64,000 bases of DNA from an uncultured Acidobacteriota bacterium (GTDB lineage: Bacteria; Acidobacteriota; Terriglobia; Acidiferrales; UBA7541). The first letter of the stretch is position 1; each line of letters starts with the position of its first letter. Below, in pieces: positions 25,518-50,276 of the stretch. The stretch lies in the NCBI GenBank assembly GCA_963702375.1, contig CAVPCI010000005.1, forward strand, positions 134,858 to 198,857. Direction: 5' to 3'. The position numbers and the translations under genes were made by a program. A model generated the notes under the pieces. That model saw only the letters and a program-made list of their open reading frames with translations. It was not told the DNA's origin and searched no databases.

Positions 25518-26261
25518 GTGAGAACAACGTGCAGCTCGGGCGGAATCCCTATCAGTGTAACTATAGCAGATGTTAATTTGATGGCTGCTCGTCTGCTGAG
25601 TGATCAATTCAAGCGTCATTCTGATTTTACGGTGGTTTCCTGCGCCGTCGATAGAGATTCGTTGCTAAGGTCAGCGCGGGAAACTAAGGCAGACGTCGCC
25701 ATCATCAGCGCTGACCTACAAGACGGGCTGTTGGGCGGTCTCGCTGCGCTTCGAGAAATTCGTCAGATAAATCCTGATCTGCGGCCTATTCTCCTACTCG
25801 ACCGATCTGAGCCGCACCTGGTGGTCGAGGCCATGCGTGCGGGCGCGCGAGGAGTTTTTTCGCGAAGCGACTTCGCTTTTGTCTCATTACGTAAGTGTAT
25901 CCGTCGAGTTTTTGAGGGGCAAATCTGGATAGGGAACACAGAGCTGCAATACCTGATCGACGCTCTAACCCAGTCGCGACCGTTGCGCGTCGTAAATGCG
26001 GACGGGTTGAATCTCCTTAGCCGACGGGAGGAAGAAGTCATGCGCTTGGTTGCCGAGGGGTTGGGAAATCGCGACATTGCAGATCTGCTGAATCTGAGCG
26101 AGCACACGGTCAAGAACTATCTCTTCCACATCTTCGATAAATTGGGGATTTCAAACCGCGTAGAACTCGTCTTATATGCAGTCAGCAATCCGAAAACGGC
26201 CCTGCCCGCACCTTCTGAGCAAGAAAAGTCTCCGCTTAATACCGCCGACCTAAACGTGTAG
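25518..26261 (+). CDS. NarL/FixJ-type response regulator (receiver + LuxR HTH) with an atypical receiver
   Basis: The C-terminus reads LSRREEEVMRLVAEGLGNRDIADLLNLSEHTVKNYLFHIFDKLGISNRVEL. The receiver keeps the acceptor Asp (IISADL). It has AD for DD, LLLD where T/S is expected, and GVFSR where K is expected. Confidence 0.75.
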   Translation: MRTTCSSGGIPISVTIADVNLMAARLLSDQFKRHSDFTVVSCAVDRDSLLRSARETKADVAIISADLQDGLLGGLAALREIRQINPDLRPILLLDRSEPHLVVEAMRAGARGVFSRSDFAFVSLRKCIRRVFEGQIWIGNTELQYLIDALTQSRPLRVVNADGLNLLSRREEEVMRLVAEGLGNRDIADLLNLSEHTVKNYLFHIFDKLGISNRVELVLYAVSNPKTALPAPSEQEKSPLNTADLNV

Positions 26262-26702: not shown

Positions 26703-28094
26703 TCAATACGCATTTCTCCCAACGAGGACAGACAAAATTGTCAGGGCAATGATTCGTAGATCCAAGCCGAAAGTCCAATTCTGAAGATAGTACAGATCAT
26801 ACTGGACGCGCTTTTCGATCGAGGTGTCTCCGCGCCATCCGTTCACCTGTGCCCAACCGGTCATTCCAACCTTCATGCAGTGGCGACGGTTGTATCGCCC
26901 GATCTCCAGTAGGAACTGCGCCACGAAGTGGGGACGTTCCGGGCGTGGCCCCACGACACTCATATCTCCCTTGAAGACGTTTATAAATTGAGGCAACTCA
27001 TCCAGGCTTGTCTTCCGCAAGAATGTTCCGAGCGGAGTTCGTCGGGGATCTTCTTCCGTCGTCCAGCGGGTGTCGCTATCAAGAGATGAGTCTATTTTCA
27101 TAGTACGAAACTTGTACATCCGAAACGGCTGGCCATTTAGGCCGATCCGCTCTTGCGTGAAGAAGATCGGGCCCGGTGAGGTTAGCCGGATCACCAGGGC
27201 GATCAAACCCATGAGCGGGGCGGTGATAATAAGAGCGGCGGCCGAAAAGCAGATATCAAAAGCCCGCTTCAGCAAAACGTAGTCAGGAAGATCGGCAGGA
27301 GTCGCGGTGAGGTCAAGCATCTGCATCCGCCCCAGCTGAAATAAGCGCTCCCGCACGACGATCCCCTCGCCCAAATCCACAATGGCGCGTATGGGCACCG
27401 ATAGCTTCTCCAGTGACTTAATAATCGTGGGAATCTGCGAAAACTGAGCAGGATGAACGGCCATCACCGCTTCATCCACTCCGGCGCCGGAGTACAGTTG
27501 GCTTACATGTTCCAGTTCGAAAGTGGGAATATCCCCTGCAACGATTTCCTGGCCCGGCAGCCGCACGTAGGCAACGACTTGACAGTGTGCGAAGGAAAGC
27601 CTTGTAAGCCGTGAGGCTGCAGAGTGAGCGAAGGCGTCGGCTCCGACGATCAAAATTCGCGTGGGACGCCCCACACTCAATTTTTGACGGTACACGGAGC
27701 GAAAAATCGCGTGCAACAAGAGGGTAAGGACGAGCATGGCAATGATGCAGGAAACGAACAGACCGCGCGGGAAAACGTCGTTCCGACCGAAATAGAGCGC
27801 GCCGACGAGCAGGACAGCGGTGGCCAAGTTGGCCGACCAGGCGGCTCTAGCGCCGGTTCGTTCCCTAAAGAGCTCGTCGACATTGGTGACCTTGTAATGC
27901 TCCGCCATGAAGGCCCAGACGAATGTACCAATAAAAACAGGGCTGAAGTGACCGCTAAGGCCGTACATGACCGGGCGTCCGACCAGAACCATGGAGGCGG
28001 CCCAAATATGCCAGCCAACCTCAAAGGCGAGCAAAGGGAGCAGGTAGACCGCCCCTTTCAGAATCAGCCGATAAATCTTTAAGCGGAGCAGCAT
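26703..28094 (-). CDS. second large polyprenyl-phosphate glycosyl-1-phosphate transferase (WbaP/WcaJ type)
   Basis: 463 aa with KRAFDICFSAAALI...PIFFTQERIGLNG...KFRTM...DELPQFINVFKGDMSVVGPRP. Last gene of locus II. Confidence 0.85.
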   Translation of the reverse strand: MLLRLKIYRLILKGAVYLLPLLAFEVGWHIWAASMVLVGRPVMYGLSGHFSPVFIGTFVWAFMAEHYKVTNVDELFRERTGARAAWSANLATAVLLVGALYFGRNDVFPRGLFVSCIIAMLVLTLLLHAIFRSVYRQKLSVGRPTRILIVGADAFAHSAASRLTRLSFAHCQVVAYVRLPGQEIVAGDIPTFELEHVSQLYSGAGVDEAVMAVHPAQFSQIPTIIKSLEKLSVPIRAIVDLGEGIVVRERLFQLGRMQMLDLTATPADLPDYVLLKRAFDICFSAAALIITAPLMGLIALVIRLTSPGPIFFTQERIGLNGQPFRMYKFRTMKIDSSLDSDTRWTTEEDPRRTPLGTFLRKTSLDELPQFINVFKGDMSVVGPRPERPHFVAQFLLEIGRYNRRHCMKVGMTGWAQVNGWRGDTSIEKRVQYDLYYLQNWTFGLDLRIIALTILSVLVGRNAY

Positions 28095-29161: not shown

Positions 29162-29617
29162 GCGATCACGACCGAAATTGCCCGTCGAAAGGTGGCCTGG
29201 GATTTACAGAACCCTCGTGCTGAAGGTCCTTGCGGCTGTTGCAGGGCGGCACTGTTTACCGTAGCACGAAAATAGCAACATTCCAATGATGCCCAGATGC
29301 GCCCATCCGATACTACCCGATTCGATCCTCACCTGTCAGCAGAGGGACACTCCCCTTTATTCGATTGGCGCCATCGTCCGGTGGATCGCGCCGATTTTTA
29401 TGCTTTAAACTTCCGCGATATATAATTCCGCTTTCTCAGCAACTAGAAATGCGAACATTTCGTGGATGAAACGACAATGCATGCCTGGGAGCAACCATCA
29501 ATGATCGTCAAATCAGGATTGCCGGAGCTGCTTCACCGGGGTCGGATTGGGGCAGGGCAGAGAGGCCTGGCTTGCCTGTACCGCGGAAAATGGGGATTGG
29601 ACACCCCTGCGAGAGTT

Positions 29618-31096
29618 ATGACCACCGTGCTGTTGCTGTCTTCTTTTCTGACGTTAGCAAAAGCCCAGGCTGCTCATCCCCTGGACAGCAGGGCGCCCAG
29701 GCAATCGACTAAGAATGAGGATCCGGGTTTCAACGGCCGCCAATCGCGAACGGATATTCCTACTGGGCAGATACGGTGCAAGAATCTTGAAAAGATTCGG
29801 TGCGTTGACGGTGGGGCATCCGGATATCCCACCCTACAAGCTGCGCTCTCCGGGCTGGACCACGGGACGATCCTGATCAGCGACGGGTTCAGGGAAACCA
29901 TCACGGACCCAATCCTACTTCGAAACGTGCGCGTGATGGTTATGCCTGACGCCGCGCTTACAATTGGGACCGGCGGTAGCATTACGCTCTCGAATGAGGC
30001 TTTCTGGGACGGGCCTGGATCAACGCTGCGCGTCAAGAAAACATCCGGAGACGCGGTTATTGTCGTCGGGGGCTGGATAACCCTGAACCTTGAAAGGCTC
30101 GTTGGACCGCGAAGCGGAACCGGCAACGGCCTGGTATTCAGGGGCGGCGAGTTCAGCAGAGCCACCATAAACGAAATATCGGGATTCTCTGGGGGTGACG
30201 GCGTTCTGTTCACAGGCATTGGCGCCGCGCAGAACACAGTGGAGAATGTGGTGTACGTGGAGGGTAACGTCTCCAATTCGATCGGAGTTTTCTGGCAAGG
30301 CGAAGCAAGGAGGGGAGATTTCCCGTGCGAGGACAATCGCTACTACGGCGGCCTGGTGATTGGCAATACGACGGCGCAAGTTCGGTTTGGGGATTCCAAT
30401 GCATACGGCGGCTATGAGCCTCAATTCAATAAATTTTACGGAGTCGCGCATTCCACAACTGCCGTAACCGCCGTCGTCTTTGAAAATACGACATTGAACT
30501 GGTTTGAAGGCTCTGCGCTCCTAACTTCCGGAAGTTCCCCATCCATTCGTTTTTCTAACGCCCCAAACAATTTTGTCAATGCGCAACCGGCACAGACGGG
30601 CATTTCGGGCCTACCAAATTCGCTGGTATTTTTCGAGGGTGGCGGTTCGAGGGGTGTGAGTCTCTTTGGAATGAACATCGACAACGAAGGCGGAGACTTC
30701 CTGGTTCGAGACGGTACCACCGACGCGGACTATTGGTGGGAGCGGTTCACACCGAGAGGAAATGTGCAATTCTTCGGCGGCGCAGGCGCTCCCGCAAATC
30801 CGTCGCTCAATGTAAACGGTATATTGAACGCGCGCACCGCGCCGGGAATTTATACGGCGTCCGGCAAGGAACAGAGCGGCGCGCATATTGTTAGCGATCG
30901 TGCAACTCTTTCCGGCCGGACGGTGACGGTGCACTTTTCCAGCGGCGCAATTTTTACCAGTTCGACAAGCTACAGTTGCACGGCGAACGACGACACCAAG
31001 CCGACTCCTATCGAGGTTGTTCAAGATTCCGGATCGAGCGTGACCTTTGCGGGAACCTCAGGGGACTCGTTTCAGTACATTTGCGCGGGCACTTGA
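29618..31096 (+). CDS. secreted hypothetical protein, probably a right-handed beta-helix (pectate-lyase-fold) enzyme
   Basis: I prefer the ATG at 29618 (MTTVLLLSSFLTLAKAQA signal peptide) over the track start at 29462. The sequence is G/N/T/V-rich and repetitive, with an N-terminal YPTLQAALSGLDHGTILISDG block. No catalytic motif recognised. Confidence 0.4.
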   Translation: MTTVLLLSSFLTLAKAQAAHPLDSRAPRQSTKNEDPGFNGRQSRTDIPTGQIRCKNLEKIRCVDGGASGYPTLQAALSGLDHGTILISDGFRETITDPILLRNVRVMVMPDAALTIGTGGSITLSNEAFWDGPGSTLRVKKTSGDAVIVVGGWITLNLERLVGPRSGTGNGLVFRGGEFSRATINEISGFSGGDGVLFTGIGAAQNTVENVVYVEGNVSNSIGVFWQGEARRGDFPCEDNRYYGGLVIGNTTAQVRFGDSNAYGGYEPQFNKFYGVAHSTTAVTAVVFENTTLNWFEGSALLTSGSSPSIRFSNAPNNFVNAQPAQTGISGLPNSLVFFEGGGSRGVSLFGMNIDNEGGDFLVRDGTTDADYWWERFTPRGNVQFFGGAGAPANPSLNVNGILNARTAPGIYTASGKEQSGAHIVSDRATLSGRTVTVHFSSGAIFTSSTSYSCTANDDTKPTPIEVVQDSGSSVTFAGTSGDSFQYICAGT

Positions 31097-32176: not shown

Positions 32177-33544
32177 TCAGCGACTCAGGGCAGGAATATT
32201 CAACCTGCCGGTCTCATCCGATGTGCTGTCTTCGGGCCCCAAAAGATATTTACTGAAGCCTTTCAAGAAAATGATCTGGGCAATGATCGGCAGGTACAAC
32301 CATAAGTTCACAAAGAAAGAAAAGAGCGCACAGAAAAACAGGACCGCATATTTTGTAATTGCATAGAACGATCTCCCTTCGTTGGCTTCCCGATAGGACC
32401 ACCCGCTCCACCAAACAACTACCCCAGTGAACAGCACACAGCCCAAGAATCCTACGTCAGCATAAATCGGCGCGACAAAGGATAGGACATTGAAAGCTTC
32501 CACCTCCGGCAGGTCATCGTAATATGAGATCTTAGGCCGGAACGTGGAGGGCACCAAGCCCAGGACCGAGGAGCCGTTATAAACAGGCACCTGAGGATTC
32601 GATACGAGGTTATCAAGGTTCAGGACATTGAAGTAGCCATACGCGTATACCCACACCGCGGCATCGGGCAGATTCTTATACTCGTCCGTGACGCCCGCGA
32701 TCGTTTTGATATCACCGCTCCTCAGATTGCCTACCACTCCGAAGAGGACCAGAACAACCGCGGTCGCAATCGCGAGATTCCGCAGCCGCACGCGGCCCCG
32801 GACAAAACAATAAACTACAAAACTCTCGACGAGCATCGAAACAATGTTCTGTCGAGTGACAAAGATCACGAAGACTGTGAGGATCAAGCTCCAAATCCAT
32901 AAGTATCCATTTCTCCGGGTTTTGAGATAAAGATAAATGGAAAGAACGCCCAGCGCGTTTGCGAAAGCGTTGTAGAAACCATAGATTCCATGAATTCCAA
33001 AATCCGAATACCCAGTGTCCCCGGTCTGTATTCCCCGGATAATCGGCACATAGCCAGCCGTCGCCACGTTAAAGATCGTGAGTGCAACGTAGGAGATCAC
33101 TAACGCTCGATATCCTCTGGACTTGACGACCCAGGTTTGTTGGCTGCGCCTCCAATGCTTCTCGGAGACCGCGCTGAGGTAGTAAGCGATAACGGCGGAA
33201 ATCTCCACCGCCAAGAGAAGTGAATACGTCTTCTCGCTTACGGGCCGCGCGTACTTGCTAATTTCCAGCGTGCCAAAAAGCGTGATCCCAATCCAAGGCA
33301 GCAGGAGGGCCAGCATAGGATTTAAATAATCGAACTTCAGAACGATGACTGCAATTGGCAGCAAGAGAATGGACCAGGCCCAGAGGAGTGCACTGGATTG
33401 GACTAAACTATGAAGAAGCAGAGCTGTAACCAACAACGTAGGGACGAAAGCCCACATGGCTACAGCGGTAAAGTCTTGTAGCCGAATCGCCTGGCGCTCA
33501 TCCCTCATTCTGAGGTTCCTACAGGTCCGCGGGCAGCGGACCAA
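32177..33544 (-). CDS. Wzy-type oligosaccharide repeat-unit polymerase (polytopic membrane protein)
   Basis: 455 aa with ~10-12 hydrophobic helices and no enzymatic soluble domain. Position in a Wzx-containing locus supports the call, which is made by context and topology only. Confidence 0.55.
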   Translation of the reverse strand: MVRCPRTCRNLRMRDERQAIRLQDFTAVAMWAFVPTLLVTALLLHSLVQSSALLWAWSILLLPIAVIVLKFDYLNPMLALLLPWIGITLFGTLEISKYARPVSEKTYSLLLAVEISAVIAYYLSAVSEKHWRRSQQTWVVKSRGYRALVISYVALTIFNVATAGYVPIIRGIQTGDTGYSDFGIHGIYGFYNAFANALGVLSIYLYLKTRRNGYLWIWSLILTVFVIFVTRQNIVSMLVESFVVYCFVRGRVRLRNLAIATAVVLVLFGVVGNLRSGDIKTIAGVTDEYKNLPDAAVWVYAYGYFNVLNLDNLVSNPQVPVYNGSSVLGLVPSTFRPKISYYDDLPEVEAFNVLSFVAPIYADVGFLGCVLFTGVVVWWSGWSYREANEGRSFYAITKYAVLFFCALFSFFVNLWLYLPIIAQIIFLKGFSKYLLGPEDSTSDETGRLNIPALSR

Positions 33545-38949: not shown

Positions 38950-39816
38950 CTATGCATCCGAAGTCACGATATAGTTTATACTTCCCAACTGGGAGCGTCC
39001 TGCCTTAACCCATTGGGCTACGTCGTCCGGAAGGATCAAGCGGTTCTGCCGGTCCGCGGTCCTGACTTCGTAACCTTGATTCCAAAATAGTTCGAAGGTG
39101 GCAGCGTAATCCGGATTGACACCCGCTGGATGAAACTCGTTCAAGCAAATTTCAATCATCCAAGTGGGCCTAGGCAATCTCCTGATGGTCTTTTCCGCTC
39201 CCTTCAATACGTTGTATTCGGCCCCCTCGACATCGATCTTGATCAAAAGCTGCTTCCCGCTAAAGCGGTCACCGAGAAGGGTGTCGAGCGTTGTTACGGC
39301 AACTGTCTGCCGGGAGCGTCTGGAATACGCCGCCCAACCAGCGAGGAGTGAAGCGCTGGGGCCTGAGGCACCATACAAAATGGCAAGCCCGTAACTAGCC
39401 GCCAGGCCTAACGGATACACTTCGGTGTCCATCCAGCCGTTTAGCGACAAACTCGCATAGAGGCATTCAAGATTTCGAAGTTGGGGCTCGATTGCAATAG
39501 CATACTTGCCCTCCGAACGGGCCAAACAGGTGTACAAGCCGATGTTTGCACCGACGTCCACAAACACTTCCGCGGTGCTCAAGTTGCATCGAATGATTTC
39601 CGTTTCCTCTGCCTCGAACGTTCCCGATTGCATCGCACGGTTCGCGGCATAGTTACTCGCTACCAACTTAAACCCGAGCGGTGTAAGAACAGATCCCTTC
39701 CGCTGGGGAAAATAGGTGTTCCACCAATCCGATAGAATACCCGGGTTGAGAGACCTGCGAAGGGCCACAAGAGATGGAAAGCGCTTCAAACGACGTTTCA
39801 GGGCTCTAAGGGTCAA
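38950..39816 (-). CDS. FkbM-family methyltransferase
   Basis: FVDVGANIGLYT and IDVEGAEYNVLKGA. I prefer the in-frame TTG at 39816, which forms a TTGA overlap with the flippase stop. The track ORF extends to 40023. Confidence 0.75.
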   Translation of the reverse strand: MTLRALKRRLKRFPSLVALRRSLNPGILSDWWNTYFPQRKGSVLTPLGFKLVASNYAANRAMQSGTFEAEETEIIRCNLSTAEVFVDVGANIGLYTCLARSEGKYAIAIEPQLRNLECLYASLSLNGWMDTEVYPLGLAASYGLAILYGASGPSASLLAGWAAYSRRSRQTVAVTTLDTLLGDRFSGKQLLIKIDVEGAEYNVLKGAEKTIRRLPRPTWMIEICLNEFHPAGVNPDYAATFELFWNQGYEVRTADRQNRLILPDDVAQWVKAGRSQLGSINYIVTSDA

Positions 39817-41327
39817 GTCTTTGCTCTCAATACCTGCGTCATTACCCACGGCCGAATTAAGGGTGAAGCTAGCGCAGCAACACCCAGGGTACAAAAGAAC
39901 AGAAGCATTAACGCGCAAACTGCGGCAGGAATCGACATAGATGCGGGAGCTAGTCTCCGATAAGCAACGACGATGAGCACAACGGGCAGCAGCGGCAAGG
40001 CAATATCGCCGAACCACCGCCACGTTTCACCTTTAAGTAATCGGCGATGGGTGAGCGGAACGCCAACTGCCATGTAGGCGCCGTTTAAAATGAACCATAC
40101 AGAGGCAGCACCCACCGGTCCGTACGCTCTGGCCATAACCACGACGGCGGGAACAACAACGATGGTCATCACTATGGTGATTTTTAGACCGATACTCGTC
40201 CAGCCATAGGCCAATTGCAAGGCGTAAGGTAACATCATCAGGCCATTCAGTGCCGTTCCGATCACGAGAAAGGTTGCGATTGGCCCGCCGTGATGCGCGA
40301 CCTCGGGATTCCTGGTCCACACTCGCAGAATGTCAACGGAGAACAGTGCCAGAATGGCCCCTAGCGGTAAGATAATGACCGCCATCATTTGCGTGCAACG
40401 ATGGTAAAGGTTCCGAAGACCTTCTTCATTGCCGGCTGCCACCAGAGACGAAAAACGGGGATAGATCGTATTAAACACCGCGGCGATTATCAGGGACAAG
40501 CCCGCTCCGAGCATCCCTGCAACAGTGTAGTAGCCAAACACTCTCAAGCTAAATAGCTTACTAACGATGACCTTATCTGCTTGGGTCAGGATCAAGGCAA
40601 AGGCCGTGATGCCGCTCATCCCCGCGGCAAATCTCCAAATATTTCTGACTAATTTTACGTTGAATCGGGGAGCGCGATCTGCGGGAGGCAAGCTCTTCCA
40701 AAAAAAAACGGCCACCAGAAAAGCCTGCACCGCGCTTACGGCCGCCTGCCATAAGAAGAATGCCCGGATGGTGGGCGAGACAAGCCACAAAATCAAAACA
40801 GCCCCGCCGTAGGCGAGAGTGCTCTGCGAAATCTTGAGTGTATTGAACAGAACTTGCCGGCCCAAGCCCATCAAGCCACCTTGATAGAAACTGAGCGGCC
40901 ATTGAAAGAACGCCAGAATGCCCATGATCATTACCGCTTGCCGGACACTCCGGATCGGAAAAGTGCCAGCTTTGATCCAGTGGGTAGCTATGAAGGGTGC
41001 CGCAATGAAGACCGTTGCTCCGATTGCAATCCCCACCATCCAGTAGCCTGCTTCAAGGGTACGCACCAAGTCCCGGGCTTCGGCCGCTTTCTCTGGCTGG
41101 ACTGAGTAGCGCGCCATCTCCCGGTTTACAGTCGGGCTCAGCCCAAAATCCAGCACCTGAAAGAGGGATTGCAAGACAAGATAAAAACCAACCAAACCAA
41201 ATGCCTCAATCCCCAGAAATTTAATATAGATAGGGATACACACGATTTGCGCGAGGGCTGACCACCCCACTCCAGAAATGTTCGCAAGCAGATCCAACCT
41301 GAAGCTGGATATCGATTTGATTTTCAA
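39813..41327 (-). CDS. Wzx-type flippase (MOP superfamily), intact
   Basis: 504-aa ORF with ~12-14 hydrophobic helices and an uninterrupted frame. Confidence 0.75.
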   Translation of the reverse strand: MKIKSISSFRLDLLANISGVGWSALAQIVCIPIYIKFLGIEAFGLVGFYLVLQSLFQVLDFGLSPTVNREMARYSVQPEKAAEARDLVRTLEAGYWMVGIAIGATVFIAAPFIATHWIKAGTFPIRSVRQAVMIMGILAFFQWPLSFYQGGLMGLGRQVLFNTLKISQSTLAYGGAVLILWLVSPTIRAFFLWQAAVSAVQAFLVAVFFWKSLPPADRAPRFNVKLVRNIWRFAAGMSGITAFALILTQADKVIVSKLFSLRVFGYYTVAGMLGAGLSLIIAAVFNTIYPRFSSLVAAGNEEGLRNLYHRCTQMMAVIILPLGAILALFSVDILRVWTRNPEVAHHGGPIATFLVIGTALNGLMMLPYALQLAYGWTSIGLKITIVMTIVVVPAVVVMARAYGPVGAASVWFILNGAYMAVGVPLTHRRLLKGETWRWFGDIALPLLPVVLIVVAYRRLAPASMSIPAAVCALMLLFFCTLGVAALASPLIRPWVMTQVLRAKT

Positions 41328-41343
41328 TTGAGTTTAACGAATC

Positions 41344-42486
41344 CTACTCTTGCCCTCGAGCTGACATCTCGCGAACCAATCGACCACCCAATTGATCGCT
41401 GAGCAGCTTTACATCCGCCTCGACCATAATTCTTACCAATTCCTCGAATCTTACCTTAGGCCTCCATCCGAGGACGTGCGCAGCCTTACTGGCGTCGCCT
41501 TGGAGAAGGTCGACTTCGGTGGGGCGAAAATACCTCGGATCAATCACGACATGCTTTTCCCAATCAAGGCCGGCGTGCGTAAACGCGCGCTCGAGGAATT
41601 CGCGCACCGTGTGGGTTTCACCGGTGGCGATCACAAAATCATCCGGCGCATCGAGCTGCATCATTCGCCACATCGCTTCCACATATTCCGGCGTATAACC
41701 CCAGTCGCGCTTGGCCTCGAGGTTTCCCATATAGAGGGTATCTTGCAAGCCCGCACGAATCCGCGCAACTGCGCGGGTGATCTTGCGGCTCACAAAAGTT
41801 TCTCCACGGCGCGGGGATTCGTGATTAAAAAGAATCCCGTTGCAAGCAAAAAGGCCATAGCTCTCCCTGTAGTTCACAGTCATCCAGTGGGCGTAGACCT
41901 TGGAGCAGGCATAGGGACTACTGGGCCGGAATGGCGTCGTCTCGCGCTGCGGGACTTCCGGCGTTCTTCCGAACATTTCGCTGCTCGACGCCTGGTAAAA
42001 CTTAGCCTTAATTCCCGTTTCTCGAACGGCTTCCAATAAGCGGACCGTCCCAAGCGCGGTAACATCGCCCGTATATTCGGGTATCTCGAAGCTCACTTTC
42101 ACGTGGCTCTGAGCACCCAAGTGATATATTTCATCGGGCTGAAGCCGATAGAGCAATTTGATCAGGCTGGTAGAATCGGAAAGGTCGGCAAAATGCAGCA
42201 ACAAACGAGCGGCACCCTCGTGCCAGTCCGGAAGGATGCTGTCAATTCGAGACGTATTAAAGCTGCTCGAGCGGCGTTTGATGCCGTGTACTTCGTAGCC
42301 CTTGGAAAGGAGCAACTCGGCAAGGTAGGATCCATCCTGGCCCGTGACGCCAGTGATAAGCGCCTTTTTTGTCAGGTGAATAATCTCCTTTCTTTTCTCC
42401 GCGTTGCACGGACGATTAGGCGTCCGCCGCACCGCTTGGTTTGTTTTCCTTGCGACTCGCAGTGTTACTCCCGTCGCCGGATCCAT
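41344..42486 (-). CDS. gmd: GDP-mannose 4,6-dehydratase, long (E. coli-type) form; start uncertain
   Basis: [53 protein letters not shown] and [17 protein letters not shown] lies 9 nt before a CTG at 42375. The ATG at 42486 would overlap the upstream gene by 70 nt. Confidence 0.85.
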
Positions 42487-43807
42487 TTGACGAGAGCCCT
42501 GGGAGGCTCGCCTTTACAGTGGCGAGCACCTCTTGCGCGAATGCTTTCCCGGGGTCATCCGAGGCTATACTTTTCCACTCGGCCCTGCCAAACACGAACG
42601 CCACTCCGACGGCAAATGCCAGCGCAGCTCCCAGCGTCATGATCAGCAGCCTCGGAGGAAACGACCTCTTCTCCGGAATTTCCGCTGGATCGAGTACCTT
42701 GACACTCGGAGTCTCCTTCGCTTCCTCCACTTTGGCGAGTTCGTATTGCTGCGTCAGACTCTCGAACACCGCTTCCTCAACTTTTGTTCCCCGGTACAAA
42801 TCCGCATACGTCACACCGAGAACCGGAAGTTGCCGAATCGCCGGATAGGTAGACTCCAAGTCGCCACCATTCGGGGCAGACTCGCCACCCGGCTTGCCGC
42901 CAATCTTTCCCAGTTGCCGTCGAAGCTCATCCACTCGCGCTTGAGACTGGCGAACCCTGACGTTACTATCTGTGTAGACTTGTTTCAAAGACTCGACCTC
43001 GCTTTGAGCGGCCATCAATTTCCCCTCAAGGTCAGCAGCAGCTCCTATCATGGCCCTAGTTTGATCGGGAATGTTGACGGCGGTGTTTTTGCTAGCAAAG
43101 TCGCTGAAAGCCTTCTCAGCCGATTCAAGGTCCTTTTTGACCTCCGCCAGCCGGCCCTCTAAAAAAACTCTTTCACGGTGAGCTGAGGAAGTATTCAGGT
43201 TGGTAACAACATTGTCCAATTCCGCCGTGTATTCCTGGGCCAGTGCCGCAGCACGCCGCGGACTTCGGTCGGTTACTTGAATGGTGATGATGCCACTCTT
43301 GCGGTTGCTCGTTACATCGGTGCGCTTCGCTAGAATCTTGCGCGCGGCTTCCCAAGACCGAGTACCGTATACCCTTCGAAGGTCGAACTTTCGAATTAGA
43401 TCGTCCTGAACTGTTCGGCTTCCCAAGACGCCAACGAAAAGATCTCCGGAGGTCTTCAATCCAAACAGATCCTCGGTCAAGCCCGCCATTCCCTCTCCGC
43501 CTTTGCTGCTAAGGAGAGCTGCAAGCGCTCCCATATTTCCCGACTGGTCGGGCGGCATCAACTGTGTCGTCGATTGATAGCGCGCCGGAATTAGAAGGGC
43601 TATCAGCAGGGAGGCAATGAATCCGACCGCGGTCACTTTGAACAGCAACCGTCTATGTTCCCAAAGCAGGCGCAATGCCGCTAGTGACTGTCCACGGCGC
43701 CTCCGGTAACCGATCTCCTCAGGGAGAATAATTTCATCGCGGCGAATGAGGCCGACCTCCTGGCTCGGCAAATCCCCAATCATCGGGCGATGAGGGTCTC
43801 GCGGCAT
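42416..43807 (-). CDS. polysaccharide co-polymerase (Wzz/GumC-type) without a kinase domain
   Basis: 463 aa: TM1 ([18 protein letters not shown]) followed by [13 protein letters not shown], a long coiled-coil region, [20 protein letters not shown] and TM2. A short Ser/Gly tail follows and there is no P-loop. Confidence 0.75.
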
Positions 43808-43839
43808 AGCTTCCTGTTTTTTAACCGTCCTTCCTACGC

Positions 43840-46413
43840 CTAGTTGTTTGGCTTATCCGCCATTCCATGGCCGGACCACGGCCAAAACGTCAACCCAATC
43901 GAGGTGGTCAAATCTGTTTGTCTCGTTTGTGAAATAACCGGAAAGCTCCACCTCTCGTATTGCACTGAAGCCGTCACGCTCAAAGTAGAGTGCAGCCAAA
44001 ATGATGCGCTTGCTCCCGCGTCTGTGATGGTGCCACCGTGAGGAATCAATTGCTCGCTCACCTTCTCGTGCCGGAAATTGAACTGAAGGTTGTCCTTAGG
44101 AGTGAACCAATATGTGGTCCATGCACTCGCGCCTTGGCCTTCGCGTCCGATCCAACTCCCTATCAGATTGCCGTCGTTTGTGTAGCCGCTGAGGAAACGG
44201 TCGTTTATGTAAAAGAAGCCGTGCTGCAAGGAAGGCTGAATGGCAGGTGGATCGGTGTAAATTCCCTCCGCGCGAAAATCCAGTTTCGGAATTTTCGGAA
44301 GTCGGGGCATGTAGATTCCGCTTATAACGGCAGCCTTGTTCCAATTGCGCCACGGGCTGATCTCGTCGTCCGTGAAAGCATCCCCATAAAGGGTCAGCCA
44401 ATTCCGCAGCTTTGGAAAACGATAGGTGAAATCGAAACCACCCCGCCGATCACCTGGATCACTCGGGGTTCCCGGCAAAGCGTTGCTTGCGATTGGGAGA
44501 ATGGACTGGCCGAACTTGTGGAGCGTCATGGGGACGCCTGCACCCGCAAGAATTGTGGTGACGCCCATCCCCATTTCAAAATTCGGCGTCGGCTTGATGC
44601 TTATTTTCCCGCCGTCGATGAAGGGTTGGTCGTCCAATGGCTGTGTCCACGAACCCGTGATCCCTGTCAGAGCGCTGCTGACCCAGTTTTGCCCCGTCAG
44701 CCGGCCGAGGAAAAATTGGACTCGCACCGGACCCAAATAACGAAAGACACTCGGCAGAGTGAACGGAGTCACTCGATTGATTTGGACCATCTCAATCGGG
44801 GCCGCATTACTACTGAACAACATCGGTCCGCTTTTGTCGGGGCCCCACCATTGCTCCTGCTTGCCAAAGGTGATGGCCCAGTCCTCGAACTGCATACCCA
44901 CATACCCGTCGAGCAAGTCCGCCTGGCCGATCGCCGGTGTCGGATTGCCCGGAGGAATTGCGGGCAGCACGTCCTGAACACCTGCGATTACCTCTCGTGC
45001 CAAAAGCGGCAGTGCGGGAGCGGAAGGCGCGTACTGATATTCGGCGCGCACGTAGCCCACCAGCGGGCCGGCGGTTGCCCATCCAGATGCCCCGGCAATC
45101 GCGTTCGTTCCCTCTTCGTAGGGCCGACCGTAGTCGTTCACAATCGTCTGGCCGTAGTCATATTTGGCGCCCCCGCTGAGCGGCTGGCCGCTGATTCCGG
45201 TCACACGCACGTAAATGGATTCTATCCGCGCATTGCGATTCGTACCTCCGCCCAGCAAATTCAACTCGCGGGCAAATTCATCGTTCAAGTCTTCCAGAAT
45301 CCGGCTCGCTTCCGCCGGACTCGCGGAGTCTCCGGTGACCTCATCGCTAGCGTCACTGATCAGTCGCGCGCATTCCATGCGCGTCCATGGCCTCTGGCCC
45401 AAAAAACCTTCGGGCACATCACCAAGCGCCTCCAGGCGGTCGAGCGCCGGATAAATCCAACTGTCGAGCGGAACATATGGCGATCCCATATCTTTTCGAT
45501 GATAGGGATGGTCGCCGAGTAGCATTTCTGACGTGCTGTTCCATTCGCCTCCACCTAACTCCGGATCGTGATGCTGGCTATAGACGAATTCCCCGGTTAG
45601 CCACCCAATTGCGCTGCCGACCAGCACGTCCGATGTGAAGTGCTGTTTGCCCTCGACACGCGCTGCGGTGATCGCGGCTGCCGCTCCGTAGGCGAGAAGC
45701 TTCGGCAAGGGCCCTGGATACTCGTGGCTCAAAACGCTGGCAACTGACCAGGCAGCAGCGGCATGTTCGGACGGAAAGGAATCGCCGCCGCTCCAAAATT
45801 CTCCGTTATGGTTGCCTTGAAACGGCCGGTTCCGGCCCGCGGCGTATTTCACTGCCTCGGTGATCGCCAGACTGTCCACTGCCGCCTCTCCGGCCAGCAA
45901 GCCCGCCTCCCGTGCGTGATCGTTATCCGTAAAGTGGCCCCACAGGTAGAGCGCTCCGGTGCCGCCGGCAAGAGCGGCGATTCCATAATTCGACAAACTC
46001 ACGTATCGGTTCTGGGTATGCAGGCTATTCGATATGTGCAGGCTCGTGTCGCGATCTGTTGCAATCATCCCGGCAGTTATTCCACCCAAGGGCACAAGCC
46101 AAATGCTGTCCTGCACCCGCAGTCGAGCTGGCGCCGTCCAGAGCCCTTTCTGATCTTGTGCAATGTGCTTCAGAAGCGAAACTCCCAACGAATTCTCGTA
46201 ATCCTCCGAACTATCGGTGGAGTCCGAAGGTGCGGTCCCAGGCTGCAGGTGCCCATTCGACCGCTCACGGGCACTAGCCGCGGCCGCCTGGCTCGGTCCA
46301 CTTGAAGCCTTTGCTGTCGTTTGGCAATAACTCGTTCTGGTTGTAACAGTAAAGCTAATTACAGAGCAAGCCAACACAAGTTTCGCCCAATGTTCTACCC
46401 TTGCGCCGACCAT
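43840..46413 (-). CDS. fusion protein: N-terminal PAP2 phosphatase domain + C-terminal Wzi-like capsule-assembly beta-barrel
   Basis: The ATG at 46413 shares one base with the upstream TGA (TGATG). Signal-like WAKLVLACSVISFTV. PAP2 blocks KYAAGRNRP / PSEH / ARVEGKQHFTSD fall at ~45580-46180. Wzi-like YVPLDSWIYPALDRLEALG and a ~550-aa beta-rich C-terminus fall at ~43840-45490. Confidence 0.7.
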   Translation of the reverse strand: MVGARVEHWAKLVLACSVISFTVTTRTSYCQTTAKASSGPSQAAAASARERSNGHLQPGTAPSDSTDSSEDYENSLGVSLLKHIAQDQKGLWTAPARLRVQDSIWLVPLGGITAGMIATDRDTSLHISNSLHTQNRYVSLSNYGIAALAGGTGALYLWGHFTDNDHAREAGLLAGEAAVDSLAITEAVKYAAGRNRPFQGNHNGEFWSGGDSFPSEHAAAAWSVASVLSHEYPGPLPKLLAYGAAAAITAARVEGKQHFTSDVLVGSAIGWLTGEFVYSQHHDPELGGGEWNSTSEMLLGDHPYHRKDMGSPYVPLDSWIYPALDRLEALGDVPEGFLGQRPWTRMECARLISDASDEVTGDSASPAEASRILEDLNDEFARELNLLGGGTNRNARIESIYVRVTGISGQPLSGGAKYDYGQTIVNDYGRPYEEGTNAIAGASGWATAGPLVGYVRAEYQYAPSAPALPLLAREVIAGVQDVLPAIPPGNPTPAIGQADLLDGYVGMQFEDWAITFGKQEQWWGPDKSGPMLFSSNAAPIEMVQINRVTPFTLPSVFRYLGPVRVQFFLGRLTGQNWVSSALTGITGSWTQPLDDQPFIDGGKISIKPTPNFEMGMGVTTILAGAGVPMTLHKFGQSILPIASNALPGTPSDPGDRRGGFDFTYRFPKLRNWLTLYGDAFTDDEISPWRNWNKAAVISGIYMPRLPKIPKLDFRAEGIYTDPPAIQPSLQHGFFYINDRFLSGYTNDGNLIGSWIGREGQGASAWTTYWFTPKDNLQFNFRHEKVSEQLIPHGGTITDAGASASFWLHSTLSVTASVQYERWSFPVISQTRQTDLTTSIGLTFWPWSGHGMADKPNN

Positions 46414-49400
46414 CAGTAGTGCGTGGCGATGAACACCGTGCTCACGATAGAGGAAGCAACCGATGCCGCCGTAAACAAGTTGGCCCACTGCACGCCGGGG
46501 CCGATCGCCTTCTCCGGTACCACCACTGTGTCCCCGGCTTGCAGCACCGATCCAAGAGAGCTTCCAATCCACAACCCTTCCCTTCGCCCAATTATCGAGC
46601 CATCCGCGCGAATCACGAAGATCGACTTCCGATTCGCCGTAGTTGTTACTCCACCAGCCTGTTCCAGATACCACTTCACGCTCTTGCCAGGCCGGTATGC
46701 AACCGCCGTGGGATTGAAGACCTGTCCAGTGACCATCACGTAGTCGGGACGCTTGGGGATGATGAGCGTGTCCCCGGCTCTCGCTTCGAAATCGGCCGCT
46801 TTGTTTTTCCAGCGATCTATGTGGGATGAAATGCGAATCGCGATACGCCCCACGGGCGCGTTCGTCGTTAGCTGCATCAACGTGGTCTCATATTGGCCGA
46901 GAGCCATTTCCTTCGCTTGTTTCTGGGCCGGCGTGCTGTCCGGCATTGCCTCCAAGCTTCCCTCGGCGTCCTTCACGCGTAGCACGAGTTTGTTCTGCTC
47001 CTTCGTCTCCAGATCCCGCACCTGCACGCGCTCAAGGATGGCGCCATAGGGATAAGCGTCTGGCAAAAATCCGCCCGCCCGCTCCAAAATCGAACTCAAC
47101 CGCTCACCGGGCCGAATCCCATAAGTCCCGGGATGCTTCACTTCGCCCTTCAGCGTAATCGTGGCGCCCAAATCCTCCCAACCGGGAAGCTGACGAATAC
47201 TAACCACATCGCCGTTGTGAAGTTGCGCGTTACTTTTCGGATCGCCCGAGAGGGCGGCGGAAATGGCAATCGGCTCATGCTGTCCGGTCAACTGGCTCTG
47301 TCCGGCATATTCATACCGCGTCAGATCTCCATCCTCGGTGTCGGCGTCCGGCTTCAGGCCGCCTCCGACGCGGACCAGATCGGCCACCGTCATATTTGTG
47401 GTCAGAGGATAGCGGCCCGGGCTCCCGACTTCTCCTTCGATGTACACCACGGCAGGCTGCACGGCGTTCGTGCTCTTATGTATGAGCAGGCGGTCACGCG
47501 GCTCCAAAATAATATTCTGAGTCGAATCGCCGGCAAGGGCTTGATTCAATGACACGCTGAAAATCTCCGCTTTGCCATCGGGCATGTACCGGAACACTTG
47601 CGCGTCGTCGGTCTGCGCATCCGGCTCCATCCCTCCTGCCAAATGAACGGCGTCGGCCAAATGAATTTGTCCGGAAGTCCGATAGGTGCCCGGCGCTCTC
47701 ACATCACCCAGAACCGATACAGTCGGCGGATTTTCGAAATCGAAGCGGCTGAAAACTCGGACCGTATCCATTGCGTGAAGAACCGGCGCTTGCGCTGGAT
47801 TTGCAAGGGCATCTGCGAGGTTGAAACTCTGCACGCTGGGACGGAAATCGGGCGCGTTAAGACGAATGATTTCGGCATACTGCATCGAAGGTTCCGGCAG
47901 CAAATCCTTGAACGATGGAATCAAATCGGTCACCCGCATGTCGTCATGATAGGAATACCGGCCGGGACGAATCACATGCCCCTCTAGATACACCGCATCT
48001 TCATTACCCTGGCTTATTGGAAATACTCGAATGCGATCGCTGTCCTGTATCTGAAAGGAGTCCAGCTTTTTCGTTGATTCGGCATCGTCGTCCGAAGCGG
48101 GAATATTGAGGCTGAGCATGGTGTGCTTGTCGTGGGCAATGGTTCGCTGCACCTCAATATGCTGCAATGTAGCCGTTGGAAGCAGGCCTCCGGCTAGTTC
48201 CAGCACACCGGATAAGTCCTTCTCGTCTTTCAGTTCATAAATCGCGGGACGTCGCACCATCCCTTCAACAGTCACCTGTGGACCAATTGGGGGAACCAGA
48301 ACACTGTCGCCATTTTGCAAACGCTGGATGTCAGACTTCACCCCATGCAGGAGCAAATCGTATAAATCCACGTTTTGAACCAATTGGCCGCCGCGAAGAT
48401 GCTGCACAATCCGGAGCGATCCTCCCTGTGTGGGGCCACCCGCAATAAACAATGCATTCAGCGGAGTGGAGAGCGAACTCACGTCGTAGGCTCCCGGATT
48501 TGCGACATCGCCCACTACATAAATTCGAACCGTTCTCAAGCGCGAAAGCGAAACATCGGCCGAAATATTGCGAAATTGAGTGCGCAGAACCTGCTGCAGA
48601 TTCTGCTGAACCTCGGCAAGACTCTTCCCGCTTACCAGCAGCGGACCTACCTCGGGCAAGCTGATTCGGCCTTCGCGGTCGACACTTCTATATATCCGGC
48701 GCGACACGCCTCCCCACAGATCGATTGCCAAGCCATCCCCAGGTCCCACCACGTAATCCGGACCAGCCGGCAAGTCCATGGGAATCGCATAGGGGTTTTG
48801 CGAGTTGTTTTCGAAAACGTCCATGCCAAACCGCCTAGCAGCCGCAGGCTGCGGTGTCGCCTGTATGTACATGTCATAAAGCGAAGGAATGTCATTGTAC
48901 GGGTTTGGTTTGCGTACCATCGCCGCCGGTTGCAGGAGGGATTGGTTCGGATTCCTCAAAGGGCCGGGAAAGTAATAATTGGGGTAGTAATTGCGGTATC
49001 CCTGCGCATTCATCGCCGCCCCGCCCATTTGACCTGACTGCGTCATGTCAAACTGGTTCATGTCGAAAGGATTTATGTCCGTGCGATCGAATGAACCTCC
49101 GAGATCACCACCCCCCGCATACTGATCGAGCAAGTTGCCCGTCAATCCGGAACCGCCCGGAGAAACACCGGGCGATTCTCCGTCATTCTGGGACTGCAGC
49201 TGCTGCATAAGGGACGACGTCCCGCCTCCTCCGCCGAGCCCCTGTGACTCTAGCGAACCGGGCAGATTCCCGGATAGTGGCGGCGAGAGTTGATCATCCG
49301 ATTGGCCAGTTTGCATGAGCTGGGCTTGCTGCAGTGTATTGTTTCTGCCCGCTGGTGGTTGTATGAATGGACTCGGCTGACTCGGGCCGAACCACGGGGG

Positions 49401-50051
49401 CCCGCTTGGAAGCTGCTGTTCGGGCCCTAGCTCCTGCGGCAGTTGCCCCTGTTGCCCTTGTTGCGCAGCCCCTTCGCAGCTCCTGGAATCGCCTTGCAAG
49501 CACTTACGCGCCTTTTCATACCGGTCCCGCGTCTGCTGCAACACCTGCGCTCTCTGCTGCTCTTCTTCCTGAGCGATGAATTTTACGCGCTCTTGAATCA
49601 GCAGGTCTTGCTCTTTTCCAGCCTCTGACTCCGGATTCACCGTGGGCATCAAATAGCCGTAGCGCTGAAGCAGCTGAGTGACCACGGAACGAAATCGCAC
49701 ATCGTTCTGGAGGCGTTCGAAAATCGCGTCATCGGCCAGATCGCGCTCGGTGATGATTTGGCCCTGGTCGGTCGCATCCTTGGCCACCCAGCGCTTTACT
49801 TCGACCATAAGACCCGGATTCTTAGCCAAAACTACCTTGATATCCTCTGCTGATGCTCCTACCTGGGCCAGATTATGGCGGGCGAGTTCTGGGCCGGCGA
49901 CTGGGTTTTGCCGGGAGACCTGAGCACCGGCGACCGTTGAAAATAACAATAATGCCCACACGGAGTAGGAGAACCGGATTGCCTGCCCGCGACCTCTTTG
50001 AATCGCGCTGAGCCGCAGGTTAGTGGTCGCCATCACGGGGATGGTCTCCAT
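46413..50051 (-). CDS. giant Wza/KpsD-family outer-membrane polysaccharide export protein (Poly_export + multiple SLBB repeats) with a ~400-aa N-terminal extension
   Basis: 1212 aa. Signal peptide, a structured ~150 aa, then a Q/N/G/P-rich low-complexity stretch (~48927-49475). PAGPDYVVGPGDGLAIDLWG (Poly_export) follows, then repeated SLBB-like units (GDV..PG.Y, GD.V.VP). The C-terminus is a hydrophobic helix (FTAASVASSIVSTVFIA). Confidence 0.8.
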   Translation of the reverse strand: METIPVMATTNLRLSAIQRGRGQAIRFSYSVWALLLFSTVAGAQVSRQNPVAGPELARHNLAQVGASAEDIKVVLAKNPGLMVEVKRWVAKDATDQGQIITERDLADDAIFERLQNDVRFRSVVTQLLQRYGYLMPTVNPESEAGKEQDLLIQERVKFIAQEEEQQRAQVLQQTRDRYEKARKCLQGDSRSCEGAAQQGQQGQLPQELGPEQQLPSGPPWFGPSQPSPFIQPPAGRNNTLQQAQLMQTGQSDDQLSPPLSGNLPGSLESQGLGGGGGTSSLMQQLQSQNDGESPGVSPGGSGLTGNLLDQYAGGGDLGGSFDRTDINPFDMNQFDMTQSGQMGGAAMNAQGYRNYYPNYYFPGPLRNPNQSLLQPAAMVRKPNPYNDIPSLYDMYIQATPQPAAARRFGMDVFENNSQNPYAIPMDLPAGPDYVVGPGDGLAIDLWGGVSRRIYRSVDREGRISLPEVGPLLVSGKSLAEVQQNLQQVLRTQFRNISADVSLSRLRTVRIYVVGDVANPGAYDVSSLSTPLNALFIAGGPTQGGSLRIVQHLRGGQLVQNVDLYDLLLHGVKSDIQRLQNGDSVLVPPIGPQVTVEGMVRRPAIYELKDEKDLSGVLELAGGLLPTATLQHIEVQRTIAHDKHTMLSLNIPASDDDAESTKKLDSFQIQDSDRIRVFPISQGNEDAVYLEGHVIRPGRYSYHDDMRVTDLIPSFKDLLPEPSMQYAEIIRLNAPDFRPSVQSFNLADALANPAQAPVLHAMDTVRVFSRFDFENPPTVSVLGDVRAPGTYRTSGQIHLADAVHLAGGMEPDAQTDDAQVFRYMPDGKAEIFSVSLNQALAGDSTQNIILEPRDRLLIHKSTNAVQPAVVYIEGEVGSPGRYPLTTNMTVADLVRVGGGLKPDADTEDGDLTRYEYAGQSQLTGQHEPIAISAALSGDPKSNAQLHNGDVVSIRQLPGWEDLGATITLKGEVKHPGTYGIRPGERLSSILERAGGFLPDAYPYGAILERVQVRDLETKEQNKLVLRVKDAEGSLEAMPDSTPAQKQAKEMALGQYETTLMQLTTNAPVGRIAIRISSHIDRWKNKAADFEARAGDTLIIPKRPDYVMVTGQVFNPTAVAYRPGKSVKWYLEQAGGVTTTANRKSIFVIRADGSIIGRREGLWIGSSLGSVLQAGDTVVVPEKAIGPGVQWANLFTAASVASSIVSTVFIATHY

Positions 50052-50276
50052 GGTGCCTCCTCCATATCTGATCCGGACGACTCATTATGAAGCGAAGCAG
50101 TCGGCTAGGCAAAGGTTCAAATGAGCACCCATTGTAAATCATCCGCAACCGGTGGGAGTCGCGGATTCGAATTCCTTGCAACACAACGCCCCCCGATTGT
50201 CAGATGCGCGCGTCCCCTTAAGGTTTGCCGCGCACTCTCGTGTGCAGTCTCGGGGATATGGTAGAGTTTCGAGCCG

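Follow-up and report, generated by a model that had tools for sequence, protein, structure and literature searches.

Conserved gene trio for a giant OPX protein, a PAP2::Wzi fusion and a kinase-less PCP in a Wzx/Wzy-dependent polysaccharide locus of an uncultured Acidobacteriota bacterium

A 64,000-nt stretch of contig CAVPCI010000005.1 (positions 134,858 to 198,857, assembly GCA_963702375.1), here called the window, was analyzed from an uncultured Acidobacteriota bacterium. It encodes three adjacent genes for a giant protein of the outer-membrane polysaccharide export (OPX) family, a fusion of a PAP2 phosphatase domain with a Wzi-family outer-membrane beta-barrel (PAP2::Wzi) and a polysaccharide co-polymerase (PCP) without a kinase domain. 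This trio is probably the export and surface-assembly head of a Wzx/Wzy capsule or exopolysaccharide operon of Terriglobia. It is best seen as a clade-specific variant of Wzx/Wzy OPX/PCP export with a new fusion, not as new machinery. The individual parts have precedent, and what is undescribed is the fusion and the joint conservation of the three genes as a module. A first-pass annotation, made from the sequence letters, had proposed an undescribed, non-canonical variant system. Full-text literature searches (PAP2 with Wzi; Acidobacteria with Wzi, Wza or exopolysaccharide) returned no description of the fusion or the trio, and to that extent the proposal held. As a claim for a new system it was overstated because multi-SLBB OPX proteins, Wzi genes beside OPX genes, kinase-less PCPs and the adjacency of PAP2 genes to wzi all have precedent. 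The departure from the textbook Wzi-Wza-Wzb-Wzc set, which the annotation had pointed out, consists of four differences: Wzb is missing, the PCP lacks a kinase, the OPX protein is very long and a phosphatase is fused to Wzi.

The three genes were found on the minus strand, head to tail in the order OPX, fusion and PCP, at the coordinates first given for them (Table 1). The OPX stop codon and the fusion start codon share one base within the sequence TGATG, as had been reported, and this overlap suggests translational coupling. The fusion stop codon is separated from the PCP ATG by 32 nt rather than the 33 nt originally counted. The fusion is read from the ATG at 46413..46411. The longest middle open reading frame (ORF) would begin at GTG 46674, but this start is not supported, as homologues align from the ATG and a hydrophobic stretch resembling a signal peptide directly follows it. 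Some database entries (e.g., P0015) are extended N-terminally through the 3' end of the OPX gene. These extensions are spurious and indicate no more than variation in start-codon calls. The 225-nt spacer 5' of position 50051 holds a weak promoter-like match and a strong Shine-Dalgarno-like run, GGAGGAGG, immediately before the OPX start codon. Beyond this spacer lie divergent housekeeping genes (saccharopine-dehydrogenase-like, elongation factor P, adenylosuccinate lyase) unrelated to the polysaccharide locus. As its upstream neighbor is divergent and unrelated, the OPX gene is taken as the first of the operon. No internal terminators or promoters were found inside the trio above chance expectation.

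An exact-match database lookup of the fusion protein gave no entry. The Caps_assemb_Wzi family (PF14052) was matched at aa 420-833 with an E-value of 1.3e-103 (347.5 bits, gathering cut-off 30.1), and PAP2 was matched with 65.8 bits (cut-off 27.2). Pfam and NCBIfam searches thus bore out both domain calls of the first-pass annotation for this protein, as well as its calls of Poly_export and SLBB in the OPX protein and of Wzz and GNVR in the PCP. The fusion was modeled with AlphaFold2 (AF2) from a 98-sequence alignment (mean pLDDT 71.8, pTM 0.67). In the model, aa 78-281 form a helical domain and aa 320-387 another helical region, after which a beta-barrel extends to aa 843. The Wzi architecture of a helical bundle followed by a barrel (TCDB 1.B.73) is therefore predicted in the fusion. 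The top Foldseek match of the model in the PDB was E. coli Wzi (2YNK) with an E-value of 8.7e-17 and a target-normalised TM-score of 0.76. The next structural matches of the barrel after Wzi were AlgE and general porins.

The motifs of the PAP2 superfamily (KX6RP, PSGH and SRX5HX3D) are present in the fusion as K189-x6-R196-P197, P214-S-E-H217 and A-R252-x5-H258-x3-D262. R196, P197, P214, H217, R252, H258 and D262 were invariant in 98 of 98 homologues and K189 was conserved in 74 of 98. A dead domain would not keep its catalytic residues in this way, so the PAP2 domain has been kept under selection. The six transmembrane (TM) helices of membrane PAP2 proteins such as PgpB, LpxE and UppP were not detected. 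The maximum 19-residue Kyte-Doolittle average was 1.2, compared to 2.4-2.5 in the TM helices of the PCP. Outer-membrane barrels cross the inner membrane via Sec. Since the helices are too weakly hydrophobic, the barrel needs Sec export and a signal peptide is present, PAP2 is most likely a soluble-type periplasmic domain on the periplasmic face of the barrel. Barrel matches swamped the full-length fold search, and relatives of the PAP2 domain were sought with a sequence profile against the PDB. It matched LpxE (6EBU, 9.5e-08), periplasmic acid phosphatases of class A and an unnamed PAP2 protein (9HTZ). NCBIfam gave only faint matches of the domain to undecaprenyl-diphosphate phosphatases. The substrate of the phosphatase is the weakest link of the working model. 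The window holds a second PAP2 gene at 2..625 on the plus strand, truncated by the start of the window at the far edge of locus I, the other polysaccharide locus. Its product is of the hydrophobic membrane type with the motifs RERPF, FPSDH and PRVYVGLHYPTD, and its similarity to the PAP2 domain of the fusion is limited to the surroundings of motifs C2 and C3 (hhalign 4.9e-08).

A helical domain of the fusion between PAP2 and the barrel resembles the SLH domain of Veillonella OmpM1 (8BZ2). With phmmer, aa 314-389 as a single sequence matched it at 1.7e-04. A profile of 16 sequences covering aa 305-395 matched it at 4.5e-09 and gave a weak match to Deinococcus SlpA (0.18). The Pfam SLH model gave no match on this region. 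A W-T-R-M-E-C motif is invariant in the domain, with T344, R345 and E347 invariant or nearly so. The region also aligned with the bundle of E. coli Wzi (aa 34-93) at an hhalign E-value of 0.004, a weak alignment from a single comparison. By these similarities aa 314-389 would correspond to the helical bundle of Wzi. An SLH ancestry is possible, though unproven.

The OPX protein is 3.2 times the length of E. coli group-1 Wza (378 aa), in agreement with the threefold difference first noted, and Acidobacteriota abound in OPX homologues of about 1200 aa. Pfam matches were obtained to Poly_export (PF02563; 4.7e-15, aa 428-502), SLBB (8e-56, six stretches) and SLBB_2 (2.7e-40, four stretches). This combination of Poly_export with at least one SLBB places the protein in the OPX family, and Wza was matched by both phmmer and Foldseek. 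The N-terminal domain gave only chance-level matches in Pfam and PDB profile searches (aa 44-192). The Q/G/P-rich linker joins this domain to the Poly_export domain. In the latter the beta1-beta2 loop is about 10 aa long, compared to 21 in E. coli Wza, and the position of the ring tyrosine is kept (IYRS compared to QYRS). A short beta1-beta2 gating loop is a trait of Class-3 OPX proteins (PMC12819527). The SLBB repeats begin at aa 512, 595, 689, 780, 871, 967 and 1107 with the motif hydrophobic-x-G-x-V-x-x-P-G-x-Y, and a helical hairpin lies between repeats 6 and 7 at approximately aa 1009-1063. The secondary structure of an AF2 model of aa 421-1212 (mean pLDDT 67, pTM 0.32) agreed with seven SLBB units. 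Its best fold matches in Foldseek were Wza, GfcC and the Class-3 OPX protein WzaB.

A hydrophobic, conserved helix of 24-26 aa closes the OPX protein, immediately after the last SLBB and at the position of Wza D4. Its 19-residue Kyte-Doolittle average is 1.73. W1189, F1193 and Y1212 are invariant in the alignment. The invariant tryptophan opens the helix, as in Wza D4, and the invariant tyrosine is the C-terminal residue. The lipobox cysteine is absent, as the signal peptide ends in STVAGAQV where E. coli Wza has LSGC. OPX proteins were divided into three classes in a survey that reported 1-14 SLBB repeats for Class 1 and 1-7 for Class 3 (PMC9603273). By Pfam the protein has the Class-3 architecture (Poly_export-SLBB without Wza_C or GfcC), yet a divergent C-terminal membrane helix is possible.

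The PCP matched Wzz (4.3e-07) and GNVR (2.7e-09) and has TM helices at aa 55-73 and 387-405, as expected of the family. No kinase family was matched on the 58-aa tail after the second TM helix, so the absence of a kinase from this protein, as first described, stood. Weak matches to Wzc were confined to the periplasmic part, and the protein is not of the PCP-2a (Wzc) type. Among the approximately 69 ORFs of the window scanned with Pfam, no LMWPc, PHP or other protein-tyrosine-phosphatase family was found. The annotation had likewise recognized no such phosphatase, and the cognate Wzb of a group-1 locus is absent within the window. The sole gene in the window resembling a bacterial tyrosine (BY) kinase is at 21792..22679 on the minus strand in locus I and encodes 295 aa. 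It scored 69 bits against TIGR01007, under the cut-off of 108 bits, and GNGCT replaces the Walker A GK[ST]. Its description as catalytically dead was reasonable, and from its sequence it is likely a pseudokinase comparable in kind to Myxococcus xanthus EcpK. The same protein is without a C-terminal tyrosine cluster. Control by tyrosine phosphorylation would be either absent from the trio module or supplied in trans. Other kinase-less PCPs that pair with OPX proteins include GumC and, with the pseudokinase EcpK, EpsV of M. xanthus (in part after PMC12004946).

Relatives of the fusion number thousands in the databases. The best 120 were all approximately 850 aa with both Pfam domains and, where labels were given, came from Candidatus Acidiferrales, Terriglobales and Acidoferrales (Acidobacteriota). 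An exhaustive search of 50%-identity representatives gave 625 proteins at E<=1e-30. These included full-length fusion clusters by the dozen, with identities as low as 37%, as well as stand-alone Wzi-like proteins of approximately 560 aa which begin at the helical region. Three of ten distant fusion representatives belonged to clusters with a named member, namely Terriglobales and Korobacteraceae proteins from metagenome-assembled genomes (MAGs) and one JGI entry with a function name only. With one genome per species, 470 loci encode fusion relatives. Neighborhoods were counted in 80 retained loci, nearly all from MAGs of Acidobacteriota (Terriglobia). The order giant OPX, fusion, PCP on one strand was found in 61 of the 80. 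The giant OPX gene was immediately 5' of the fusion in 67, and in about 60 of these the start codon was -4 to +25 nt from the OPX stop codon. Both the coupling and the order of the tightly packed set first described are thus conserved in relatives. The extreme E-values and the recurrence in independent related loci place the trio beyond chance. The genes after the PCP vary, and a GDP-mannose-4,6-dehydratase (GMD) gene and wzx follow it in few loci only. This combination of a conserved head for export and a variable cassette for the glycan is a classic pattern. The distribution across phyla, also raised by the annotation, was mostly confined to Acidobacteriota. A single locus with the full trio (L026, DATNMX010000058.1) is labeled Candidatus Dormiibacterota, and this label may reflect a binning error or transfer. 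A second context was found in about 12 loci (Table 1), in which a paralogous fusion is divergent from a kinase-less PCP of 32% identity, a B12/radical-SAM enzyme and genes for family 2 glycosyltransferases (GT2). Judged by its gene content this is still a polysaccharide locus.

On the reading preferred here, the PCP with its two TM helices would sit in the inner membrane beside Wzy and pass the growing polymer to an oligomeric periplasmic OPX channel. One Poly_export ring and seven SLBB rings could make this channel long enough to span the periplasm largely alone, and the polymer would exit through the C-terminal helices of the OPX protein as in Wza. The co-translated Wzi-family barrel would hold or organize the polymer at the surface, as in group-1 capsules. 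A lectin activity and a role in cell association may be ascribed to it by its likeness to Wzi. The PAP2 domain, exported via Sec, would hang in the periplasm under the barrel and beside the SLH-like helical domain. There it may remove phosphate from a phosphorylated glycan end or from the lipid carrier or anchor of the glycan.

Several observations weigh against this reading. The trio and the fusion family are known from genes alone, and the confidence of the AF2 model of the fusion is moderate (pLDDT 71.8). A pore made in the outer membrane by the OPX protein itself is unproven. Pfam Wza_C (PF18412) was not matched in the OPX protein at E<=10, and the E. coli Wza control gave 9.9e-17. The C-terminal helix was no more amphipathic than shuffled sequence (helical moment p = 0.38) and was predicted as helical at a pLDDT of only about 30 in the AF2 monomer. 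The nearest solved PAP2 structure, LpxE, is a lipid A/lipid-phosphate phosphatase, which would suggest that the substrate is a lipid and not a glycan. About 12 of the 80 fusion loci have no adjoining OPX gene. The PAP2 gene of enterobacterial cps loci is only marginally similar to the fusion domain, and the precedent it offers is one of parallel and not of orthology.

The failure to match Wza_C, with its positive control, is also what a composite translocon would lead one to expect. In such a translocon the OPX protein would be functionally Class 3 without a pore of its own, the Wzi-family barrel would be the exit channel and PAP2 an accessory at its mouth, in the way that WzpX/S/B or EpsX serve the Class-3 OPX proteins of M. 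xanthus. The missing lipobox, the conserved adjacency and coupling of the OPX and barrel genes and the AlgE-type polysaccharide porins among the next best structural matches of the barrel fit this arrangement. So do a gating loop about half the length of that of E. coli Wza, a Class-3 trait (PMC12819527), and the Wzi homologues found near 32 + 8 Class-3 OPX genes in a survey (PMC9603273). However, both ends of E. coli Wzi are plugged and the protein is dispensable for export (PMC3791409, PMC9601211), and the fusion keeps the periplasmic helical domain that is the plug in Wzi. The OPX protein has also retained a hydrophobic helix at the Wza D4 position and the ring tyrosine position, and about 12 fusion loci have no OPX gene adjacent to them. 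A composite translocon is a credible alternative but rather unlikely. The loci without an OPX neighbor would suit a role of the fusion outside the export path, in which it dephosphorylates lipid A or phospholipids, or ties the outer membrane to peptidoglycan via the SLH-like domain, and conditions the surface for polymer only indirectly. The profile match to LpxE, the weak NCBIfam matches to undecaprenyl-diphosphate phosphatases and the match of the helical domain to the SLH of the OmpM1 tether agree with this. It is nonetheless improbable, as both genomic contexts are polysaccharide loci with a kinase-less PCP, the coupling to the OPX gene is very tight and Pfam SLH is not matched. Moreover, lipid A phosphatases of the LpxE/LpxF type work at the inner membrane. 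An artefact, whether an assembly or frame error that created the fusion ORF or the adjacency, or chance in one genome, is refuted by hundreds of independent assemblies with single ORFs of about 850 aa bearing both domains, and by the order and strand kept across loci from species-representative genomes.

A broader reading of these results is speculative and more doubtful than not by some way. It holds that PAP2::Wzi reveals a missing step in Wzy-dependent capsule assembly and that the Wzi bundle is a diverged SLH domain. In that case PAP2 under the lectin barrel would strip the reducing-end phosphate or pyrophosphate-lipid and so decide between release and retention of the chain. The cpsACP/orf2 product of Klebsiella and E. 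coli would by analogy do the same job as a separate polypeptide. A diverged SLH domain would link the Wzi family by descent to peptidoglycan-tethering barrels of the OmpM type. The fusion bears on two questions in Gram-negative bacteria, namely how a Wzy capsule is detached from undecaprenyl diphosphate and how it is held on the cell. It also bears on what the PAP2 gene next to wzi does in the K-loci of Klebsiella, where its role is unexplained. The fusion has an intact active site, is coupled to an OPX gene and is found class-wide in abundant soil bacteria, and these features are genomic evidence from an independent source for placing a phosphatase step with Wzi at the outer membrane. It offers a single polypeptide in which the link between phosphatase and Wzi can be tested. 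The extreme OPX protein combines seven SLBB rings with an additional N-terminal domain and a C-terminal helix that is not recognised, and it bears on the current debate over OPX proteins which cross the outer membrane themselves and those which depend on a barrel partner. The polysaccharides of Acidobacteriota also matter for soil aggregation.

The trio opens locus II. On the same strand 3' of it are genes for a GMD-type enzyme, Wzx, methyltransferases and glycosyltransferases of families GT4 and GT2, together with a second dehydratase/epimerase, a C-methyltransferase, a Wzy-type polymerase and a Bac_transf initiating transferase. Locus II is assigned to the Wzx/Wzy-dependent pathway because Wzx, Wzy and the initiating transferase are all encoded. 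Within locus II, a 544-aa ORF without a family match (29462..31096) is on the plus strand, opposite to all other genes of the locus. Locus I, at approximately 4 to 24.6 kb, belongs to the XrtA/PEP-CTERM type and encodes an OPX protein of 245 aa, the system ATPase, a chain-length determinant of the pepcterm type, a NusG paralogue and the BY-kinase-like protein, which the first-pass annotation had correctly placed in this locus as the only one of its kind. The NusG paralogue (21100..21681, minus strand) is a candidate antitermination regulator of polysaccharide operons. Between the two loci are a PilZ-domain protein (24693..25082, minus strand), a candidate c-di-GMP regulator, and a LuxR-type response regulator (25518..26261, plus strand), also a candidate regulator. 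Adjacent minus-strand ORFs at 10959..11462 and 11524..11865 match the C- and N-terminal parts of DUF6625, and the pair looks like a gene split by a frameshift or stop codon.

Table 1. Features of the trio and its surroundings, with positions in the window; the last row lists loci in other genomes, with positions in the locus concerned.
Feature	Position	Strand	Evidence
OPX gene, 1212 aa: Sec signal peptide, Poly_export, seven SLBB	46413..50051	-	Pfam, phmmer, Foldseek
OPX N-terminal domain, aa 44-192; invariant C184, C192	49476..49922	-	Conserved in homologue alignment
OPX linker, aa 193-380 (~190 aa), Q/G/P-rich low complexity, poorly conserved	48912..49475	-	Alignment
OPX Poly_export (D1), aa 428-502	48546..48770	-	Pfam, comparison with PMC12819527
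Seven SLBB beta-grasp repeats, OPX aa 512-1180	46512..48518	-	Motif scan, Pfam, AF2 secondary structure
OPX hydrophobic C-terminal helix VQWANLFTAASVASSIVSTVFIATHY, aa 1187-1212	46416..46493	-	Hydropathy, alignment
Promoter-like site TTGCCT-17-CATAAT, 33 nt 5' of OPX ATG	50084..50112	-	Weak consensus match
TGATG stop/start overlap	46411..46415	-	Sequence read
PAP2::Wzi fusion gene, 857 aa, N-terminal Sec signal peptide	43840..46413	-	Pfam, AF2, homologues
PAP2 phosphatase domain, fusion aa 78-282	45568..46182	-	Pfam 4.2e-18 at aa 181-282
SLH-like periplasmic helical domain, fusion aa 314-389	45247..45474	-	phmmer, profile, hhalign
Wzi-family outer-membrane beta-barrel, fusion aa 394-845	43879..45234	-	Pfam, Foldseek
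Kinase-less PCP, 463 aa: two TM helices, ~310-aa periplasmic domain, 58-aa cytoplasmic tail	42416..43807	-	Pfam, hydropathy
Wzx-type flippase	39813..41327	-	Pfam Polysacc_synt, MatE
Wzy-type repeat-unit polymerase	32177..33544	-	TIGR04370 65 bits, cut-off 40
Initiating phosphoglycosyl transferase (Bac_transf), likely distal end of locus II	26703..28094	-	Pfam
Second-context fusion loci	L049 8466..12565; L033, L040, L044, L047, L052, L061, L063, L065, L067, L068, L070		

Locus II was compared to known export systems. PCPs of M. xanthus are also without an active kinase domain. The OPX protein resembles those of the M. xanthus Class-3 translocons (WzaX/S/B with WzpX/S/B; EpsY/EpsX) in having no Pfam Wza_C and a short beta1-beta2 loop (PMC9603273, PMC9601211, PMC12819527). 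In both systems the OPX gene lies beside the gene for an outer-membrane barrel, which has 18 strands in M. xanthus, and there is a PCP partner. The Class-3 OPX proteins of M. xanthus have one or two SLBB in approximately 200-250 aa, compared to seven SLBB in 1212 aa here, and lipoproteins make up about half of the Class-3 OPX proteins. The M. xanthus barrels are of the PgaA/AlgE type, open and without a helical plug, whereas the barrel here is of the Wzi family with a helical domain and a phosphatase. The conserved hydrophobic C-terminal helix of the OPX protein is a further difference. A long SLBB array and a C-terminal helix after the last SLBB are shared with multi-SLBB Class-1 OPX proteins (Poly_export-SLBB(1-14)-Wza_C; PMC9603273). 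Unlike in these, the helix is not recognised as Wza_C, and the protein has in addition a conserved N-terminal domain with a linker of about 190 aa. The fusion resembles the OmpM/SlpA tethers (Veillonella OmpM1, 8BYS/8BZ2) in a single N-terminal SLH-like domain with a T-R-x-E motif before an outer-membrane barrel. It differs from OmpM in the lack of a long coiled-coil stalk, in a Wzi-family barrel in place of a 16-strand porin and in its occurrence in a phylum of the Gracilicutes type, and any peptidoglycan binding is putative.

The group-1 loci of E. coli and Klebsiella also share features with locus II. Both are Wzx/Wzy-dependent, with an OPX protein containing Poly_export and SLBB, export genes at the 5' end and then a variable glycan cassette. 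Both encode a Wzi-family barrel (18 strands in the known system) with a periplasmic helical domain, which is predicted by the model here, and a PAP2-superfamily gene or domain beside Wzi. The gene order here is OPX, Wzi, PCP, compared to galF-cpsACP-wzi-wza-wzb-wzc at the start of Klebsiella K-loci (PMC4616057). The OPX protein here has 1212 aa and seven SLBB and lacks both a lipobox and a recognisable Wza_C. Its PCP partner is without a kinase, and the window encodes no Wzb. Wzi homologues have been catalogued beside OPX genes of all three classes (PMC9603273). Acidobacterial sequences were placed in Wzi homologue "group C" in the 2013 paper on the Wzi structure (PMC3791409), and a 2025 review describes Wzi homologues as mainly proteobacterial (PMC12220298). 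The PAP2 gene orf2 was among the capsule-associated genes in a density-based transposon screen of Klebsiella (PMC6247091). In the group-1 locus of E. coli 26561 a PAP2 gene is directly 5' of wzi. This cps PAP2 is a very hydrophobic inner-membrane protein of 209 aa. The enterobacterial PAP2 is thus separate and hydrophobic, whereas PAP2 here is fused to Wzi and of soluble type. Orthology of the two was rejected, with an hhalign E-value of 0.012 and a probability of 3.5% over the C3 motif alone. The association of PAP2 with Wzi nevertheless recurs, in different forms, in two distant lineages, which makes a functional link between them more likely.

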